From positions 1-13,104 of IMG/VR virus record IMGVR_UViG_645058835_000001: a DNA stretch of 13,104 bases, one strand, 5' to 3'. Under the pieces are notes generated by a model, which did not search any database, had not been told where the DNA came from, and saw only the letters and a list, made by a program, of their open reading frames with translations. Source of the stretch: a virus. Taxonomy: Duplodnaviria > Heunggongvirae > Uroviricota > Caudoviricetes. This document shows, one piece after another, positions 1 through 5,992 of this stretch (positions are counted from its first letter, which is position 1; each line of letters starts with the position of its first letter). The position numbers and the translations under genes were made by a program.

Positions 1-1230
1 ATGTTTAACAAAATGGATGTAACCAAACTGAACCTCCCGAAGGTTGATATAGAAGAAATGCTTCGAAGGATAAATTCAGGAAAAGCCATTTTATTTACCG
101 GGGCAGGTTTTTCACGTAAAACAAAAAATATAACAAATGGTGAACCACCTCTTGCAAAAGCGCTATCTAAGAAAATAAGTCAGCTCGCAGGGTTAGGTTC
201 TGATAATGAAGATTTAATGTTCACTTCTCGTTTCTTTCTGAAGCACGGAAATAAAAGCGAACTTCTTAAACTATTAAAAGATAATTTTGTGTTGCGTGAA
301 GTTTCTGAATATCATGAGAAAATTTGTTCCTTACCATGGCGAAGGTTTTACACTACAAATTATGATAATTCTATTGAATTGGCATGTCTCAAAACCGGAA
401 GGAGAGTTGAGTCATTGGATATTGATGACCTTCCAAAGGATCATATTTCTCAAGGTGATTTATGTGTACATCTTAATGGCGCTATTGATAAAGCGATAAT
501 ATCCGACCTCGATTCTAAAATAAAGCTTACAAACTCATCTTATCTTTCCCCTCAATCTTTCATTAGCTCCCAATGGAATTACGTTTTTAAAAGAGATCTT
601 GAAACAGCAAGTGCTGTAATATTTGTAGGATACTCCATGTATGATATGGATGTACAAAGATTGCTCTACCAGACAGATAGTCTGGTAGAAAAGACATATT
701 TTATAGTTCATGAAAATGCTAGTTTCCAGGAAACATTTTTTTTGACTGACTTCGGACACGTTTTACCTATTGGAGTAGAAGGCTTTTCTAATTTAATCAA
801 TGATATTCAATTTCAATCCAATGAAAATCGAGAAGAAATATGTCTAGATTGTTTTGAATTAAAAGAAATTAGTTACAATCATGAAACAATTACAGATACT
901 GAAATAAAAGATTTTTTACTCTTTGGAAAGCATGATGATAATCAGATTAACACTTCTGTAAGCAATGATTTTTTAGATAATTTTTTGATAAATCGCGATC
1001 TACTTAAAGAAACTATAAGGTTAATTCAATCCAAAAATAATATTCTTATTCATAGTGAGTTAGGAAATGGTAAAACCGTTTTTCTTAAAATGATAACTTA
1101 TCTGCTCGCTCGTGAAGGATATAATGTTTATACCTTCTCTGAAAAAAGTGAATATGATGATGAATTATCCGAAATTGATTGGATCGTAAAAAAACAAAAA
1201 AAATGTAGTAATTGTGATCGAAGGTTATAA
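1..1230 (+). CDS. SIR2-like (SIR2_2-type) domain protein, N-terminal part of a SIR2-P-loop NTPase; the reading frame terminates inside the NTPase domain
   Basis: 409-aa ORF starting at ATG at position 1 (true start could lie upstream of the window). Motifs in the usual SIR2 order: AILFTGAGFS, RFYTTNYDNSIE, CVHLNGAID, VIFVGYSMYDMD. A beta-strand plus Walker A-like P-loop (ILIHSELGNGKTVFLKMITYLLAREG) sits only ~55 aa before the stop, so the NTPase domain cannot be complete in this ORF. Confidence 0.75.
   Translation: MFNKMDVTKLNLPKVDIEEMLRRINSGKAILFTGAGFSRKTKNITNGEPPLAKALSKKISQLAGLGSDNEDLMFTSRFFLKHGNKSELLKLLKDNFVLREVSEYHEKICSLPWRRFYTTNYDNSIELACLKTGRRVESLDIDDLPKDHISQGDLCVHLNGAIDKAIISDLDSKIKLTNSSYLSPQSFISSQWNYVFKRDLETASAVIFVGYSMYDMDVQRLLYQTDSLVEKTYFIVHENASFQETFFLTDFGHVLPIGVEGFSNLINDIQFQSNENREEICLDCFELKEISYNHETITDTEIKDFLLFGKHDDNQINTSVSNDFLDNFLINRDLLKETIRLIQSKNNILIHSELGNGKTVFLKMITYLLAREGYNVYTFSEKSEYDDELSEIDWIVKKQKKCSNCDRRL
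1188..1203 (+). repeat. Homopolymeric A7-C-A8 tract at the junction of the two SIR2-NTPase reading frames (candidate slippage or frameshift site)
   Basis: Read directly: cgt aaaaaaa c aaaaaaaa tgt. Frame 1 stops at 1228-1230; frame 2 is open from 1190. Removing one A joins them with no stop codon. Confidence 0.9.
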
Positions 1231-2482
1231 TAAAGCAGAACGATTGCTAAATCATATTAATATCAATTATCCTGATGAAATATCGATAATAATTACTGAT
1301 AGAAGTGCAATTGCTTTAAGAACAGCTTACTTCATCAATTCATTAGATATTGAGTTTTCTGAAGTTAGTTTAGATCAGTTAACCGAATCTGAAATTTCTG
1401 ATTTTGTTGATTTGATAGAAAATCAAGGTCTGTGGTCAGAACTTACATCATTGTCAAAGATTAACAAAATCAAAAAAGTTAAAGAAGATTACAATGGCCA
1501 AATCTCAGGGATATTATTAGGTTTACTTAAAAGCCCTTCAATTCAAGAAAGAATCAAATATTTAACAGATGAGTTGTTTAAATCTCAAGAGTATAAAGAT
1601 ACTGTGTTTGCCATAGCATTATGTGACATAATTGATGTAAGAAAAACATCTTCTATTATTTCTGAAATGGCAGGGAATGATAGTATTTATAAAATGAGTC
1701 TTAGATCAAGTGATCAGTTCAAATCTTTATATCGGTTCACAGAAAGCGGTACTGCAATTGAGACAAAATCAAGTCTAATGTCTCTTACGATCATAAATAA
1801 TAGTTTTAATGTGAGCTATGTTAGACATAAACTACTATCAATAGTCGAGACATTTAACAATCTTAAAAATGTATCGTATGATGCAAATAAAATATTTAAA
1901 TCTTTACTAAGGTTTCATGTTTTAGAAGTTTTGCTACCGCAAAAGCAAAAAGCATTGGATAGCTATTACATGGAATTGAAGCGGGTTTGCCCGTGGCTTA
2001 CTGACTCCCCACACTATTGGGTACAATATGCTATGTGTAGACTTTCAATAGGAGATTTAGACTCTGCTCAAACCTATTTAAATGATGCATACTCTTTAGC
2101 TAGATCAAAAGAAGATTATCATACGGAAAATATTGATACGCAGCAGGCTAGATTGCTAATAATGAAGTGTTTAAAAGAACCTGACTCTGGTAAGTGCTTT
2201 GATAGTTTCATCGAAGCTCATAACATACTTATTGGATTGCCTGATGATGGTTATAAGTATAGACAAATAATTCCGTATAAAGATGTCTATGAGCTAAAGT
2301 ATAAACACTTTAATAAAGGTAATAAAGTTCAATTTGAACATGCTTGCAAGGCTCTTTTAGCTCAAGTAAGTTCCGTTGATTACCACCAAGATGATCTTAC
2401 TTTAATTAAAAGAGTATCATTTATAAATAGAAGCAAGGTTATTTTAGAGGAAATAGTAAAAAGTATAACATCCAATAGATGA
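1214..2482 (+). CDS. Continuation of the same SIR2-NTPase protein (rest of the NTPase domain plus an alpha-helical, TPR-like C-terminal region); probably not an independent gene
   Basis: 422-aa ORF in the +1 frame relative to 1..1230, overlapping it by 17 nt. It begins at GTG with no Shine-Dalgarno and has no in-frame ATG for ~140 codons. Its frame opens at 1190, inside the A7-C-A8 tract. Helical repeat-like sequence near the C-terminus (YWVQYAMCRLSIGDLDSAQTYLNDAYSLA). Confidence 0.6.
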   Translation: MIEGYNKAERLLNHININYPDEISIIITDRSAIALRTAYFINSLDIEFSEVSLDQLTESEISDFVDLIENQGLWSELTSLSKINKIKKVKEDYNGQISGILLGLLKSPSIQERIKYLTDELFKSQEYKDTVFAIALCDIIDVRKTSSIISEMAGNDSIYKMSLRSSDQFKSLYRFTESGTAIETKSSLMSLTIINNSFNVSYVRHKLLSIVETFNNLKNVSYDANKIFKSLLRFHVLEVLLPQKQKALDSYYMELKRVCPWLTDSPHYWVQYAMCRLSIGDLDSAQTYLNDAYSLARSKEDYHTENIDTQQARLLIMKCLKEPDSGKCFDSFIEAHNILIGLPDDGYKYRQIIPYKDVYELKYKHFNKGNKVQFEHACKALLAQVSSVDYHQDDLTLIKRVSFINRSKVILEEIVKSITSNR

Positions 2483-2489
2483 TTTTTAT

Positions 2490-2514
2490 AAAGCAGTGGT
2501 TAATACACTGCTTT
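2490..2514 (+). terminator. Hairpin terminator candidate downstream of the SIR2-NTPase gene
   Basis: AAAGCAGTG (2490-2498), loop GTTAATA, CACTGCTTT (2506-2514): a 9-bp perfect stem starting 8 nt after the TGA at 2480-2482, followed by TATATTG. Confidence 0.5.
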
Positions 2515-2781
2515 ATATTGAGTTTCATGAATACACCATTACTGTTATTCAGTACTCATGGCTAGCGTTCTGGTATGTACTCGAGGATATTCTCCGACAT
2601 ATCGGGTTTTAAATACTCAAAACCTCAAGTGAGCGCTTTTATGACGCGCTTTTTGTATTGTTAACCCAACCGTAATCTACAGACAAAAAACCATCAGAAT
2701 CGTGCATAGGCGCTCAAATTTCACGGCTGGGGATTTCTACGTGCATTCAACCCAAAAAGTGACCGAAAAAGTGCTTACAGA

Positions 2782-2803
2782 GTTGACGTTACGTTGACGT
2801 TGT
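2782..2803. repeat. Tandem direct repeat GTTGACGTT x2 with 11-bp period (iteron-like); further TGACG cores at 2884-2891, 2972-2978 and 3005-3010
   Basis: Read directly: aGTTGACGTTacGTTGACGTTgt. Confidence 0.8.
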
Positions 2804-2830
2804 TTTCTGGTGATTTTTGCTCAGTGGTTG

Positions 2831-2856
2831 TTATTATATGTTTGATTATTATATGT
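2831..2856. repeat. AT-rich direct repeat TTATTATATGT x2 with 15-bp period
   Basis: Read directly: TTATTATATGTttgaTTATTATATGT. Confidence 0.8.
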
Positions 2857-2871
2857 ATTTTTAATGTATTG

Positions 2872-2911
2872 CTCACTTCAAACTCACGTCAACTCACTCT
2901 TATAGAGTGAT
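2872..2911. repeat. Three CTCAC repeats at ~10-bp spacing running into a 7-bp-arm palindrome TCACTCT-TAT-AGAGTGA (2895-2911)
   Basis: Read directly: gCTCACttcaAACTCACgtcAACTCACTCTtatAGAGTGA. Confidence 0.8.
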
Positions 2912-3024
2912 TAATTTCTATAAGTACTTTATCTCAAAATTTGATTTTTACGGATGGAAGCCCATCAAAGTAACGTCATTTTTTTCTAAGACTTTGATCT
3001 TTCGTTGACGGTGTTAGTGGGGAC

Positions 3025-3054
3025 TTCGGTCATCGAGCGCAATGCGCTCTTCTG
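3025..3054. repeat. Imperfect 30-bp palindrome with a perfect central 15-bp core GAGCGCAATGCGCTC flanked by GGTCA/TGACC
   Basis: Read directly: GGTCAtcGAGCGCAATGCGCTCttcTGACC. Confidence 0.75.
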
Positions 3055-3188
3055 ACCGTTTCAATGGATAGGTTCGCCTTCTTGCGCCTCTCGCGGCGTT
3101 TGCCGGCTCCGCGCTTTTGGCGGTTTGGCAGGCATATCTCTCTTATTATTGGTCGTTTTTTGCACTGCCTTGTCACGATCTGTCACTA

Positions 3189-4241
3189 CTAGTAGTAATG
3201 GTCATAACCTCCGCTTTCTCTTCTGGCTCTGGATGCTCTCACTCGTGCTTTTCTTAACATCCTTAACAGCGGGTGGGTTTGTACTTTGTTCGAGTTTATT
3301 ATCTGTGAGGATAGTAACTCCCTGCGCTCTGTCTCTGCCTCTTTGGTGACCGCTATCACTGATAAATCCCAATCGTGTTTGCTAATTAACGGTGCTTGGA
3401 ACGGGGTGATTGGTGAGCGATTTATGTCTTGTCGTTTCAATGTACGCTGTATCTGTCGCTTAGCTTTGTAGTTGTCTTTCCTTGATGCCTGAACGGCTTT
3501 TAGTATGCGTCTTACAGCATGAAAGCCAGTGATAGAAAGTGTTTCTTTTTTTATCACATGCCGCGCCCAGCCATTCGAATAACCCCAAACGTTGGCATCT
3601 GACCAATCATATAGGCTCTTGCTCGCCTCTCTATTAAAGTCATTTAACTTAGTTTCGGGCTTTGCCATGTAATCAATCTGTTTACCTATACACTTTGTAG
3701 GCTCTGAATATTGCTGACCTTTCAAATCTAGATCCCACTGGGGAGGAACATTTGATGGGATTGCATTGTTTGCCAGTGTTACCCATTTGCTGACAATTTT
3801 GCCAGCTTGCCCATTAATGCTTCTTTCGTTCACCATGATTATTGCGTGTACATGCGGCTCTGACTGGTGTTGAGCCCACTCCATGACGTAAACCCACTGA
3901 TTGCCTTTCGAAGTCAACCATCTGGTAAGTGCCTTTAACGCTTTGTTGAATTTCTCTGGCGTTGTTCCCTTAACGGGTCTGAAGGTAAAGGAGTAGGGGA
4001 TACCACTAGTTGATTCGACATCCAGAGTAAACAAAGCTCGCCTCATTGTACGCCATTTCTTCTTTGTCCAGGCTGGTGGTATGCAGTGGTTAGCCTTTGA
4101 TGATTGGCGTTTATTCTCTGCCTTTAATTCATTACGTTTGTGCGTAACTGATTTCACATAAGCTAATGTGCGACCATTGATGTGATTGATTACGGCTTGT
4201 GATTTTGTGGATAGACTCGCGTCTTTATCGTATAATTCCAT
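3189..4241 (-). CDS. HUH-endonuclease-type rolling-circle replication initiator-like protein (YfjJ/YagK, inovirus Gp2-like family)
   Basis: 350-aa ORF. Motif order typical of RCR Rep proteins: RALFTLDV / YSFTFRP (motif 1-like), EPHVHAIIMV (HUH), KQIDYMAKPETK (catalytic Tyr-x-x-x-Lys). Basic C-terminal tail. Last gene of a coupled leftward operon. Confidence 0.6.
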   Translation of the reverse strand: MELYDKDASLSTKSQAVINHINGRTLAYVKSVTHKRNELKAENKRQSSKANHCIPPAWTKKKWRTMRRALFTLDVESTSGIPYSFTFRPVKGTTPEKFNKALKALTRWLTSKGNQWVYVMEWAQHQSEPHVHAIIMVNERSINGQAGKIVSKWVTLANNAIPSNVPPQWDLDLKGQQYSEPTKCIGKQIDYMAKPETKLNDFNREASKSLYDWSDANVWGYSNGWARHVIKKETLSITGFHAVRRILKAVQASRKDNYKAKRQIQRTLKRQDINRSPITPFQAPLISKHDWDLSVIAVTKEAETERRELLSSQIINSNKVQTHPLLRMLRKARVRASRARRESGGYDHYY

Positions 4242-4268: not shown

Positions 4269-4655
4269 TCAAAGCCGACTCTCGCAAAGTCGGCTTTCTG
4301 CTTTGTCAATCACAGGTATCTGTCTCCTCATCCGTTCTATTGCATGATTGAACCCTAAGTCTTCCGCGAGAGATACGTCATCCATATTGTCATTGTCATC
4401 CTCAATATCCCGTGATTCTGGAATTGCAGACTTTATTCCCGCATTCTCCGCCGCCAGCGCCGCGCACTTGGCCTCAAGGTTATCAATCGTGATTCCAGCA
4501 GAACGGCACTCCCGCAACGCCGTTTCTAGTTTTGATTCAAGTTCACCGAACTTACGGACAAGATATTCAGCGTTTGTTTCGTTAACATTTAAATCACTTG
4601 GGATGCATTTACCTTTCAGAAATCCATCCATCTCAATTAGTGTCATTTGTTTCAT
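4269..4655 (-). CDS. Hypothetical protein (128 aa), acidic C-terminal half
   Basis: ORF with GGAG-like Shine-Dalgarno upstream of the ATG at 4655; its ATG overlaps the stop of the upstream 54-aa ORF (ATGA). Confidence 0.55.
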
Positions 4656-4816
4656 TTCTTCCCACTCCGCAACATCGCATTCAGATATTTGTTTTGATTC
4701 ACTGATGGAAAAGAATTTCTCTTAAGCAATTCCTCTCTCGATGGCATTGGCTTTACGCGTTGGCGAATAATCATTTCTGCCGGAAGAATGCCGGGATTGT
4801 ATGCAAGTCCTCTCAT
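4652..4816 (-). CDS. Small hypothetical protein (54 aa, [54 protein letters not shown]), not in the supplied ORF track
   Basis: Hand-translated from the minus strand with no internal stop. Its ATG (4816-4814) overlaps the TGA of the upstream gene (ATGA) and its TGA (4654-4652) overlaps the ATG of the downstream gene (ATGA), so it exactly fills the gap between two accepted genes. Confidence 0.5.
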
Positions 4817-5103
4817 GATTTACTCTCCACGAACTGGTCAATAGCCATGCTAAGTGACACACCTAAAGTCTCGATATGCTGCTGAATATCCTGTAGCGTC
4901 TGCGCCTGAGATAACAGGATTTCACGGTTGCATAATTCTTTAACCAGATGCTCAAACTTGCTGTAATAACCGATACGGCTTAGTGTTTCTTTCCCTGCAT
5001 TCTCGCCTTCTTTGATAATTCCTCTTTCGCTAAGAATCAGATCGTGTTTGGTTCCGGTAATAACGTATTTTCCGAGGTCGATGTTTAGCTTCATTGTTTT
5101 CAT
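4813..5103 (-). CDS. Hypothetical protein (96 aa; start at [13 protein letters not shown] rather than the longer track ORF)
   Basis: GAGGAA Shine-Dalgarno 6-7 nt upstream of the ATG at 5103-5101; begins 10 nt after the stop of the upstream gene. Confidence 0.6.
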
Positions 5104-5113
5104 TGTTAATTCC

Positions 5114-5407
5114 TCAGTCATTACTGATAGCGCCATAGCGTGAGCGGTAATTACGCAGGCGCGGGTCAATTTCAGGGAAGTGTGTATATGTTGCTTTGCG
5201 GAATGGTCGGATTGATGTCTGGTAAATTCGCTCGCGTTCTTCTTTCTCTGCAAGCCATATACAGTGGCGAAATTCCTTTTCCTCTTTCGTTTCCTGCGGT
5301 AGAGACATTATTCGATCGTAGTTTTTTCTGAATTTATCCAGCACCTCCGATACGGAATTGCCGGAACAGCGGCGTGGGTCATCCGCACCATACAGAGGCG
5401 CTGGCAT
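5114..5407 (-). CDS. Hypothetical protein (97 aa)
   Basis: ORF with AAGGA Shine-Dalgarno ~8 nt upstream of the ATG at 5407; same strand and tight spacing with neighbours. Confidence 0.6.
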   Translation of the reverse strand: MPAPLYGADDPRRCSGNSVSEVLDKFRKNYDRIMSLPQETKEEKEFRHCIWLAEKEERERIYQTSIRPFRKATYTHFPEIDPRLRNYRSRYGAISND

Positions 5408-5430
5408 AATTAAATCCTTATTTTTCTAAA

Positions 5431-5814
5431 TCAGAATGGGATGGAATCGTCGTATACAGGAGTGTTCTGCTGGTTACTACTTTGCTGCTGCGGGCCATTT
5501 CCTGAAGCTGCAAATCCAATCTTTGCATTCAGTAATTCAAGAGTGATTGATTGACCATTTTGCCCCTGATAAACATCAACCCTGATGTTTTCTCCGGTAA
5601 TTTCCACAATGCCACCTTCAACAAGAACACTACGGTAGTAATCCGCTTGCGCTCCCGGCTTGGCAAATACAACGGCGCTGTAGTTTGTCCATTCTTTCTT
5701 TTTTGTCTGGCGATCGTAATACTGAACGCCAGCACGGATGTTGAATCCGATATTTTCCCCGGCCTGAAACTCTCTTGCGGGCTTGTTTAGTCTTACAGTA
5801 ATCGAATGTGCCAT
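5431..5814 (-). CDS. Single-stranded DNA-binding protein-like (short OB-fold SSB with an acidic C-terminal tip)
   Basis: 127 aa from MAHSITVRLNKP. C-terminus ...NTPVYDDSIPF resembles the conserved SSB tail DDDIPF; a Gln/Asn/Gly-rich linker precedes the tail. GGAG upstream of the ATG at 5814-5812. Confidence 0.55.
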   Translation of the reverse strand: MAHSITVRLNKPAREFQAGENIGFNIRAGVQYYDRQTKKKEWTNYSAVVFAKPGAQADYYRSVLVEGGIVEITGENIRVDVYQGQNGQSITLELLNAKIGFAASGNGPQQQSSNQQNTPVYDDSIPF

Positions 5815-5951
5815 TAAGCAGCCGCTCCTTCTAATTCGTCTCGTCTGATGTTGTAAACGCCCTGCGCTTTGTGCTGCTCCGGTGTGCCTTCGAGCATCTT
5901 CCACGCTTTGGCGAACGCCTGTTTAAGCTCTTCTACGGTGTTTTTCTGCAT
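5814..5951 (-). CDS. Possible small leader ORF (~45 aa, MQKNTVEELKQAFAKAWKMLEGTPEQHKAQGVYNIRRDELEGAAA) coupled to the SSB-like gene; start uncertain
   Basis: Its TAA stop (5816-5814) overlaps the SSB-like ATG (TAATG). No convincing Shine-Dalgarno; the longer track version (to 6113) overlaps the DnaB-like ORF on the opposite strand. Confidence 0.25.
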   Translation of the reverse strand: MQKNTVEELKQAFAKAWKMLEGTPEQHKAQGVYNIRRDELEGAAA

Positions 5952-5992
5952 TGCTGCGTCAGTGAATGCTTTTAGAACCTGTTCAGGTGTAG

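Follow-up and report, generated by a model that had tools for sequence, protein, structure and literature searches.

The window analysed here is the whole stretch of 13,104 nucleotides, the first 2,482 of which hold two overlapping open reading frames. ORF1 (1..1230, plus strand) encodes 409 residues from an ATG start, with an AGAGG Shine-Dalgarno sequence 5 nt upstream of nt 1 on the source contig, while ORF2 (1214..2482) encodes 422 residues from a GTG start that was assigned mechanically. ORF2 lies in the +1 frame relative to ORF1 and is open from nt 1190; an in-frame ATG is absent for ∼155 codons and no Shine-Dalgarno-like sequence was seen before nt 1214, bearing out the description given in an earlier note made from the letters alone. 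Conceptual fusion of the two ORFs yields a protein of 826 amino acids, in line with the ∼825 residues anticipated there. The GC content is 28-35% across 1..2500 versus 42-52% in most of the remaining window. The features of the locus are listed below, in the residue numbering of the intact 826-residue protein and with reference to EfAvs5 (PDB 9JAP), which derives from the Escherichia fergusonii PICI EfCIRHB19-C05 (PMC11897194).

Approximately -447 to -414, outside the window: left breakpoint of the cargo cassette.
1..1230, plus strand: ORF1, encoding Avs5 residues 1-397 followed by 12 residues out of frame (KQKKCSNCDRRL) before the stop; the native part comprises the SIR2 domain, linker/FISNA-like helices and the first half of the NBD with Walker A.
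49..801, plus strand: predicted SIR2 NADase effector domain (aa 17-267), placed by Pfam PF13289, the EfAvs5 residue map and AF2 secondary structure.
895..1864, plus strand: STAND NOD module (∼aa 299-621, approximate limits), interrupted by the frameshift and placed by sub-gathering Pfam nSTAND matches, alignment to the EfAvs5 NOD and the AF2 model.
1054..1077, plus strand: Walker A P-loop SELGNGKT (aa 352-359); K358 is the equivalent of EfAvs5 K379, and G355-N-G-K358 is invariant in 29 homologues.
1188..1194, plus strand: A7 homopolymer, containing the one-base insertion that divides the gene; A6 in 7/7 matching complete E. coli genomes.
1190..2482, plus strand: frame-2 continuation, encoding Avs5 residues 397-826 and the stop, without a start codon or Shine-Dalgarno sequence of its own; it contains Walker B, the remaining NOD and the C-terminal sensor.
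1205..1222, plus strand: Walker B VVIVIE (aa 402-407), in which E407 occupies the position of D426, the Mg-binding residue of EfAvs5.
1877..2479, plus strand: putative C-terminal sensor domain (∼aa 626-826), all-helical in the AF2 model and 40% identical to the EfAvs5 sensor.
2487..2517, plus strand: terminator-like hairpin, 5 nt past the stop codon.
2649..2716, no strand: right breakpoint of the variable cargo cassette; rightward lies island backbone common to strains with other cargo.
3189..4241, minus strand: HUH/rolling-circle Rep-like gene (Pfam PF23343, E 7e-07; phrog_30534; annotation), part of the island backbone and not of the defence gene.

The separation of ORF1 from ORF2 is due to a single extra A in the run at 1188-1194. 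The same DNA is present at 99.7-100% identity in seven complete E. coli genomes, all of which carry A6 and encode the intact 826-residue protein, the genome matches being 2699 nt in each of the seven versus 2700 nt in the query. The intact protein is annotated as WP_001469044.1 and occurs on 249 public contigs, whereas the 409-residue truncated product is found on one contig only, the source of the window (GCA_000158395.1, GG657384.1), in which the A7 run lies around position 243,897. Apart from the extra A the gene is 100% identical to the intact alleles, with no second lesion, and the additional base is the sole one-base indel across 21.2 kb when compared with a 99.8%-identical genome. A split of this kind was found in none of the 826-residue alleles read from a 284-member cluster and in none of the 120 homologues listed. 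These data support the proposal in the earlier note that the two ORFs are one gene. The window contains no uninterrupted reading frame for the protein; the locus is Avs5 by descent and a disrupted allele as written. We consider it very probable that positions 1..2482 represent one 826-residue Avs5 (AVAST type 5, SIR2-STAND) gene that the extra A renders non-functional in this form. ORF1 stops short of Walker B, the winged-helix domain and the sensor, and no translation start is available to ORF2; the A7 allele is therefore predicted to have lost function. A phage genome collection searched by both DNA and protein contained no match, and the gene is therefore not known on any sequenced phage; a scan of the whole window against Rfam also returned no match.

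The assignment to Avs5 is drawn from several comparisons. A phmmer search of the PDB aligned residues 17-826 collinearly with residues 23-844 of EfAvs5 (9JAP_A, E 8.4e-163). Scripted identity to EfAvs5 is 37% overall, and 43, 28, 33 and 40% for the SIR2 domain, NBD, HD-WHD and C-terminal domain, respectively. Since Avs5 clades are ∼20% identical to one another (PMC12931631), this value indicates that the protein most likely belongs with EfAvs5 in clade 3. The structure prediction and fold search suggested earlier also favoured this family. An AF2 model was made of P0001, an 87%-identical homologue (pLDDT 84, pTM 0.80), and in a Foldseek search with this model 9JAP ranked first (E 2e-55), the AVAST5 filament 9NC9 occupied ranks 2-7, and SAMD9, DSR2 and ThsA came next. 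The global TM-score to 9JAP was only 0.38, which probably reflects the comparison of a compact monomer model with a filament subunit. The resemblance to SIR2-STAND systems had been noticed from the sequence, together with the suggestion that the protein is shorter and perhaps a distinct variant. The family holds, but the latter view does not: EfAvs5 has 849 residues and the homologues retrieved by the search have 814-832. The gene product, judged from its sequence, is homologous over its full length to an Avs5 characterized in both structure and function, and the intact allele WP_001469044.1 is an uncharacterized member of this known family. The accessions of the protein were not found in the Avs5 papers, their supplements or the wider literature searched.

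All the SIR2-type motifs recognized in the earlier note were located by script in the intact protein (GAGFS 34-38, TTNYD 118-122, HLNG 157-160 and GYSMYD 210-215), together with SELGNGKT at 352-359, and SIR2_2 (PF13289) matched at E 2.7e-10 with 40.9 bits against a gathering cut-off of 24.5. Together with the full-length alignment to a solved Avs5, this match excludes a chance occurrence of the motifs. The pocket residues A35, T119, N120, Y121, H157, N159, Y181 and S212 are invariant in 29 homologues. Residues A35, T119, N120, Y121, N159, Y181 and S212 map to A41, T140, N141, Y142, N180, Y202 and S233 of EfAvs5, respectively, and are kept between the two proteins, as are K358, T359, R434 and R517. 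The histidine of HLNG had been put forward as catalytic. H157 is indeed invariant, but so is N159, and the pocket residue studied in EfAvs5 is the asparagine of its HING motif, N180, the equivalent of N159. The P-loop was likewise confirmed, although K358 lies 51 residues from the stop of ORF1 rather than ∼55. The NOD comprises FISNA-like helices, the NBD, a helical domain and a winged-helix domain; the TTR arginine R453 of EfAvs5 has R434 as its counterpart, and R537 has R517. In contrast to SIR2_2, the profile matches to this module were below gathering (nSTAND_NTPase5, 30.6 bits versus 34; nSTAND3, 22.2 bits versus 27.2). The column aligned with E407 contains Asp in 24, Glu in four and Lys in one of the 29 homologues. 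The C-terminal domain is all-helical in the AF2 model, with weak TPR matches at residues 671-708, so that the order SIR2, P-loop NTPase, helical C terminus deduced from the letters is upheld, the NTPase being of the STAND type. The subgroup of 826-residue proteins retains the catalytic and ATP-binding core.

Membership of a different SIR2 defence family, such as Thoeris ThsA, DSR1/DSR2 or SIR2-HerA, can be discounted almost completely. PADLOC-DB v2 returned no Avs5 match for the protein, only matches of its SIR2 domain to ThsA models (residues 17-229, E 2e-12) and, weakly, to Dsr1 (residues 115-217 only, E 1e-4), and the one NCBIfam match, also to Dsr1, was negligible (13.8 bits versus a cut-off of 1400). 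The ThsA and Dsr1 matches are confined to the SIR2 domain, whereas the full-length match is EfAvs5; furthermore, the protein has no SLOG domain, and its neighbours (resolvase, a 58-aa ORF and Rep) include neither a TIR (ThsB) nor a HerA gene. The protein architecture thus rules out a ThsA, DSR or HerA identity. As the validated EfAvs5, along with four homologues, gave the same outcome in PADLOC-DB v2, the missing Avs5 match represents a gap in that database.

The division into two ORFs could in principle be natural, with ORF1 encoding a SIR2 and P-loop effector and ORF2 a separate helical sensor that acts in trans. The source record does call two ORFs, but the break separates Walker A from Walker B within a single nucleotide-binding fold, ORF2 has neither ATG nor Shine-Dalgarno sequence, and the split is unique among the homologues and alleles described above. 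On these grounds a natural two-gene system is rejected as scarcely credible. Somewhat less remote, but still very improbable, is a programmed switch in which the A-runs, through slippage during transcription or slipped-strand phase variation, restore the frame in some of the transcripts or cells and so adjust how much toxic NADase is made. Long A/T runs cause RNA polymerase to slip, and the A7 run (1188-1194) and the adjoining A8 run (1196-1203) both lie within the 41-nt ORF overlap, where a change of frame would generate the full-length protein. Against this, runs of seven to eight A/T slip rarely; the frame is regained only if one A drops out or the ribosome shifts by +1, a -1 slip leading to the wrong frame; and the distribution is unlike that of a contingency locus, the off allele being a singleton among several hundred contigs and A6 being present in 7/7 complete genomes. 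The direction of the slip and the distribution of the alleles led us to reject a programmed frameshift. If it were nevertheless true, the A7/A8 tract would set the dose of a toxic NADase by slippage.

The preferred reading, a single gene divided by one base, leaves two origins for the extra A: the A7 allele is a pseudogene restricted to this strain, or else it arose as a homopolymer error in a single 2009-era draft assembly, with the chances roughly balanced. The same facts, a +1 within a homopolymer, one contig against 249, and no other one-base indel in 21.2 kb, enter into both. An error of sequencing or assembly, which would mean that the strain truly has a fully functional Avs5 gene, has a little under an even chance. 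The sequence comes from an early draft scaffold, of an assembly series that we presume was made by pyrosequencing, a method that miscounts homopolymers. The isolation of the indel within 21.2 kb argues the other way, as the assembly is not visibly full of such errors, and the adjoining, longer A8 run is correct. A genuine mutation, possibly selected since an NADase sensor may be costly or autoimmune, comes similarly close to evens. The break inside the NBD and the missing start signal of ORF2 fit inactivation. Defence by EfAvs5 is abolished by mutation of N141, K379 or the Walker B residue D426, or by deletion of the sensor, and the protein is toxic when over-expressed. Set against a mutation of any age is the 100% identity of the remainder of the gene to the intact alleles, which would date any inactivation to the very recent past.

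The gene is the sole cargo of an AT-rich cassette of ∼3 kb that has its own promoter-like site, Shine-Dalgarno sequence and terminator, consistent with the initial view of a one-gene defence system borne on a mobile element as AT-rich cargo. Between the breakpoints (window ∼-414 to ∼2649) the cassette holds only the Avs5 gene, a dedicated partner being absent. A partner gene upstream of the window had been left open in the earlier note; the upstream resolvase and 58-aa ORF, like Rep, are island backbone and remain in place under different cargo, which speaks against such a partner. The island is integrated at tRNA-Arg (argW), is bounded by a 23-bp repeat of the tRNA-Arg 3' end, and its backbone occurs in 543 of 5426 complete E. 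coli genomes. The cassette slot is variable. In other strains it holds either the GAPS6 antiphage system, as in EcPF15 (GapS6a/GapS6b, above NCBIfam cut-offs), or proteins without a match in any library. Strain EC529 carries the same gene in an int-AlpA-Rep island at tRNA-Arg, with a P4-type integrase, AlpA and HUH Rep; packaging genes, a feature of PICI-like satellites, were not identified in this island. P22-like prophage remnants and intS take the place of the int-alpA side in the window. No specific account of argW as a defence hotspot turned up in a literature search.

By homology with EfAvs5, the intact protein would be held as an inactive, ATP-bound monomer until recognition of a phage protein by its helical C-terminal domain; filament assembly, driven by the NOD and SIR2 domains, would follow, bringing SIR2 domains together, switching on NAD+ hydrolysis and starving the phage. 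NADase activity, filament activation and phage sensing are attributed here on the basis of a homologue that is 37% identical, and we infer them for the intact protein accordingly with caution. An unlikely but conceivable extension is that the 826-residue subgroup, found in E. coli, Serratia and Pectobacterium, is a functionally distinct Avs5 lineage, perhaps with another assembly mode and phage trigger. This is suggested by the absence of the bundling determinants (the insertion with E85, K792 and the basic tail), the four differing interface residues and the Walker B Glu, detailed below.

In terms of annotation, the locus becomes one disrupted Avs5 (AVAST type 5) gene instead of a ‘SIR2 family protein' and a ‘hypothetical protein'; beyond this the significance is slight, the family being known and the finding ordinary. 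The EfAvs5 clade, unrecognized by PADLOC-DB v2, will be undercounted with that tool. The gene also serves as a marker for a slot of variable cargo within an argW island carried by ∼10% of complete E. coli genomes, and novelty is more to be expected from the library-unmatched cargos of this slot, among them WP_231838864.1 with WP_020233472.1, and WP_000119352.1, than from the Avs5 gene.

The closest known system, EfAvs5, shares with this protein the order SIR2, NOD, helical sensor, as well as the NAD pocket, the Walker A lysine, the TTR arginine and the R537 equivalent, and each is carried as a single gene by an integrative island. The window copy differs in being frameshifted. The Walker B Asp (D426) is replaced by Glu (E407), a 9-residue SIR2 insertion with E85 is missing, K792 is replaced by G773, and the basic tail 845-849, required by EfAvs5 for bundling (PMC11897194), is absent. 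In addition, four filament-interface residues are changed (H362 to L341, K461 to A442, and H622/K623 to V604/S605). As these assembly determinants are not kept, the geometry of the filament or bundle may differ from that of EfAvs5, the trigger of which is T7 gp1.7 (PMC11897194). Other Avs5 proteins (PaAvs5-1/2/3 and EcAvs5, PMC12931631; ‘AVAST5 filament', PDB 9NC9) have the same size and the tripartite architecture that is common to all Avs5 clades (PMC12931631); the clades hydrolyse NAD+ upon sensing a phage protein, which for PaAvs5-1 is JADA (PMC12931631). With the model of the 87%-identical homologue, 9NC9 was matched at a Foldseek probability of 1.0, yet at only ∼16% identity. Thoeris ThsA, DSR1/DSR2 and SIR2-HerA possess a homologous SIR2 NADase effector domain. 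ThsA differs by its SLOG domain and ThsB partner, both absent here, and its models match residues 17-229 only; DSR1/DSR2 exceed 1000 residues and have a DSR C-terminal domain that is not found here; and SIR2-HerA is distinguished by its HerA neighbour gene, also absent. Human SAMD9/SAMD9L is matched at a Foldseek probability of 1.0 (E 5e-13) but with 11% identity, and is a eukaryotic multi-domain protein with a different effector; the resemblance of Avs5 to SAMD9 has already been published.

The first 2,500 nt of the window are AT-rich (G+C 28-35% over 1..2500, compared with 42-52% in most of the remaining sequence) and carry two overlapping open reading frames:

1..1230, plus strand: ORF1, 409 aa, ATG start
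1214..2482, plus strand: ORF2, 422 aa from a mechanical GTG start, one frame off ORF1

Translation of the window showed that frame 2 is open from nt 1190 and has no in-frame ATG for ~155 codons from that point; no Shine-Dalgarno sequence was found before 1214. The SIR2 and P-loop motifs that the earlier note reported for this pair are all present in the translations, at residues 34-38 (GAGFS), 118-122 (TTNYD), 157-160 (HLNG), 210-215 (GYSMYD) and 352-359 (SELGNGKT) of the intact protein. A megablast search of 5,426 complete E. coli genomes identified the same DNA in seven chromosomes (99.7-100% identity), each match covering 2699 nt against the 2700-nt query. In the alignment the window has seven adenines at 1188-1194 (A7), compared with six (A6) in the matching genomes. 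The A6 version encodes an uninterrupted 826-aa protein, annotated 'SIR2 family protein' (WP_001469044.1), which an exact-sequence look-up located on 249 contigs. By the same look-up the 409-aa truncated product occurs on one contig only, the window source (GCA_000158395.1, scaffold GG657384.1).

ORF1 consists of native residues 1-397 followed by 12 out-of-frame residues, and the frameshift separates Walker A (352-359) from Walker B (402-407) within one nucleotide-binding fold. ORF1 therefore lacks Walker B, the winged-helix domain and the sensor, while ORF2 has no start signal. By analogy with EfAvs5, the characterised Avs5 of Escherichia fergusonii, in which mutation of Walker B or deletion of the sensor abolishes defence (PMC11897194), the A7 sequence as it stands is a predicted null allele. 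The odds that the extra A is a sequencing or assembly artefact or, conversely, a real mutation are roughly even. An additional base in a homopolymer, in a singleton allele from an old draft assembly, points to an artefact, while the extra A is the sole single-base indel across 21.2 kb of scaffold GG657384.1 when compared with strain 357900, and the adjoining A8 run is correct, which argue for a genuine mutation. A programmed switch operating at the A runs is unlikely, as the frame would be repaired only if one A were removed or the ribosome shifted by +1, and the 'off' allele does not recur.

By every sequence criterion the gene is an uncharacterised member of Avs5 (AVAST type 5, SIR2-STAND). 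Pfam SIR2_2 matched residues 115-231 above threshold (E 2.7e-10), the STAND models nSTAND_NTPase5 (30.6 bits) and nSTAND3 (22.2 bits) scored below threshold, and weak TPR matches were seen at residues 671-708. Chain A of 9JAP was the one overwhelming match among PDB sequences, full-length at residues 17-826 (E 8.4e-163); 9JAP is an EfAvs5 filament solved by cryo-EM, and EfAvs5 is an AVAST type 5 SIR2-STAND protein from the E. fergusonii PICI EfCIRHB19-C05 (PMC11897194). A scripted count on the 9JAP alignment gave 37% identity overall, with 43% in the SIR2 domain, 28% in the nucleotide-binding domain (NBD), 33% in the helical and winged-helix domains (HD-WHD) and 40% in the C-terminal domain. 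Apart from the Walker B substitution, the residues to which the EfAvs5 study assigns a function are all conserved. The NAD pocket of EfAvs5 (A41, T140, N141, Y142, N180, Y202 and S233) is kept as A35, T119, N120, Y121, N159, Y181 and S212. In Walker A, K358/T359 align with K379/S380 of EfAvs5; R434 aligns with the TTR arginine R453, and R517 with R537. The Walker B residue D426 is E407 in the 826-aa protein, at a column occupied by Asp in 24, Glu in four and Lys in one of 29 homologues; across this set there is no variation in the pocket residues, in G355-N-G-K358 or in R434. A homologue with 87% identity was modelled with AlphaFold2 (pLDDT 84, pTM 0.80), and a structure search with this model returned 9JAP first (E 2e-55), then 9NC9, a second AVAST5 filament, followed by SAMD9, DSR2 and ThsA. 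The global TM-score of the model is low (0.38), for which the simplest explanation is that a predicted, compact monomer was set against a subunit taken from a filament; Avs5 homologues modelled with AlphaFold3 have been called 'closed' (PMC12931631).

A 23-bp direct repeat of the 3' end of tRNA-Arg (argW) lies beyond the gene (L001, 10261-10283; L002, the strain EC529 locus, 8683-8705), which places the gene within an island integrated at argW. The DNA common to strains 357900 and EC529 is limited to a block of 5.9 kb comprising a resolvase, a 58-aa ORF, the Avs5 gene and an HUH Rep-like gene. The remainder of the EC529 island encodes a P4-type integrase, AlpA and small ORFs, a layout that recalls the PICI carrying EfAvs5; in the window strain, P22-like prophage remnants and intS take the place of the integrase/AlpA side. 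The EC529 island end also contains an extra segment (L002 8683-11044, with the att repeat on one side and the intact resolvase on the other) that holds a resolvase pseudogene, sharing 88% identity with the intact copy, and a 263-aa ORF with weak similarity to the HslV peptidase family (phrog_1040).

Of the 5,426 genomes, 543 contain the Rep backbone but only 7 the Avs5 gene. When three other strains were compared, the cargo breakpoints fell at window ~-447/-414 and ~2649/2716, giving a cassette of ~3 kb in which Avs5 is the sole gene, together with a promoter-like site (TTGACT and GATAAT separated by a 16-nt spacer, with an extended-10 TG), an AGAGG Shine-Dalgarno sequence and a terminator-like hairpin. 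The variable slot, flanked by the 58-aa ORF and the Rep gene, extends from window ~-447 to 2716 (9553-12716 on the source contig, L003) and occupies L004 5251-8717, L006 7460-8872 and L005 5092-8718 at other loci. In EcPF15 it houses GapS6a/GapS6b (above NCBIfam cut-offs), in DA33137 an overlapping pair of ORFs (825 and 330 aa; WP_231838864.1, WP_020233472.1), and in O157:H7 TR01 a 470-aa ORF (WP_000119352.1). The DA33137 and TR01 proteins have no match in Pfam, PADLOC or NCBIfam and are candidate undescribed defence genes. All O157:H7 genomes among the matches listed share one match pattern across the Rep backbone, which describes the backbone and not the slot content. The genes upstream are island backbone and not the partner that the earlier note had allowed for, and the slot shared with GapS6a/GapS6b indicates a mobile, defence-associated context rather than a housekeeping one. 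The core of that note's interpretation, a single SIR2-NTPase-helical defence gene that is frameshifted and carried by a mobile island, was right.

Beyond the Avs5 stop codon the window contains the following:

2483-3188: non-coding stretch of ~700 bp separating the Avs5 stop codon from the Rep gene
3189-4241, minus strand: Rep-like gene (PF23343, weak MobA/VirD2 nuclease similarity)
4269-7000: degraded P22-like early region (Ea22-like, DUF2737, DUF5405, Abc2-like anti-RecBCD, truncated ERF, chimeric ORF)
within 7089-13104: Arc/Mnt-like repressor, HNH endonuclease, and intS beside tRNA-Arg
8033-10210: HK620-type tailspike
10388-11632: AT-rich O-antigen polymerase-like gene (G+C ~30-34%)

The non-coding stretch, which has no Rfam match, could contain the origin for the HUH Rep. 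It displays five terminator-like hairpins, compared with 0.5 in shuffles, among them perfect short palindromes at 2782-2798 and 2894-2910. Public annotation of the Rep-like gene is inconsistent (1053, 858 or 648 bp by genome), and phrog_30534 spans only its residues 135-349. The chimeric ORF (5993-7000, 335 aa), a DnaB C-terminal fragment joined to a P22 gp16 fragment, is a deletion scar, and 7089-13104 is the remains of a serotype-converting P22-like prophage.

The suggestion that the gene represents a new, shorter variant of SIR2-STAND is unsupported. EfAvs5 has 849 residues compared with 826 in the intact protein, the best 120 homologues are mostly 814-832 aa, and the same SIR2, nSTAND3 and repeat architecture extends across Avs5 clades that are ~20% identical to one another (Molecular Cell study, PMC12931631); the protein is therefore not shorter than its relatives. 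Its similarity to EfAvs5, compared with 16% identity to 9NC9, makes it most likely a member of the EfAvs5 clade. A second, commoner Avs5-like lineage in E. coli (814 aa, 43% identical to the window protein; P0029-P0062 and others in the homologue list) has at least one plasmid-borne member (P0043). Of the other SIR2 systems, ThsA was rejected as both a SLOG domain and ThsB are missing, DSR1/2 as the Dsr1 score is 13.8 bits against a cut-off of 1400, and SIR2-HerA as there is no HerA neighbour. PADLOC-DB v2 made no Avs5 call for the window protein. This reflects a gap in the library, since EfAvs5 itself (rebuilt from the 9JAP alignment) and four homologues matched only ThsA SIR2 models, and no Avs5 model, in PADLOC-DB v2.0.0, which would miss the Avs5 clade of EfAvs5.

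The most likely mechanism of the window protein is inferred from EfAvs5 and from PaAvs5, which senses the phage protein JADA (PMC12931631). The resting protein would be a monomer that binds ATP without hydrolysis; sensing of a phage protein by the C-terminal domain would lead to filaments built through contacts mediated by SIR2 and the nucleotide-binding module (NOD), and assembly would switch on the SIR2 NADase, lowering NAD+ and halting phage replication. The EfAvs5 filament-interface residues H362, K461, H622 and K623 are not conserved (L341, A442, V604 and S605). With respect to bundling, E85 sits in an insertion absent from the window protein, K792 is replaced by G773, and the protein terminates at the residue aligned with R844, without the basic tail 845-849. 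In view of the four altered interface residues and the missing bundling determinants, the assembly geometry, and certainly the trigger, may differ from those of EfAvs5. Structures, activators and a mechanism are known for the family to which the window gene belongs; the copy described here is an allele that is either disrupted or mis-sequenced.
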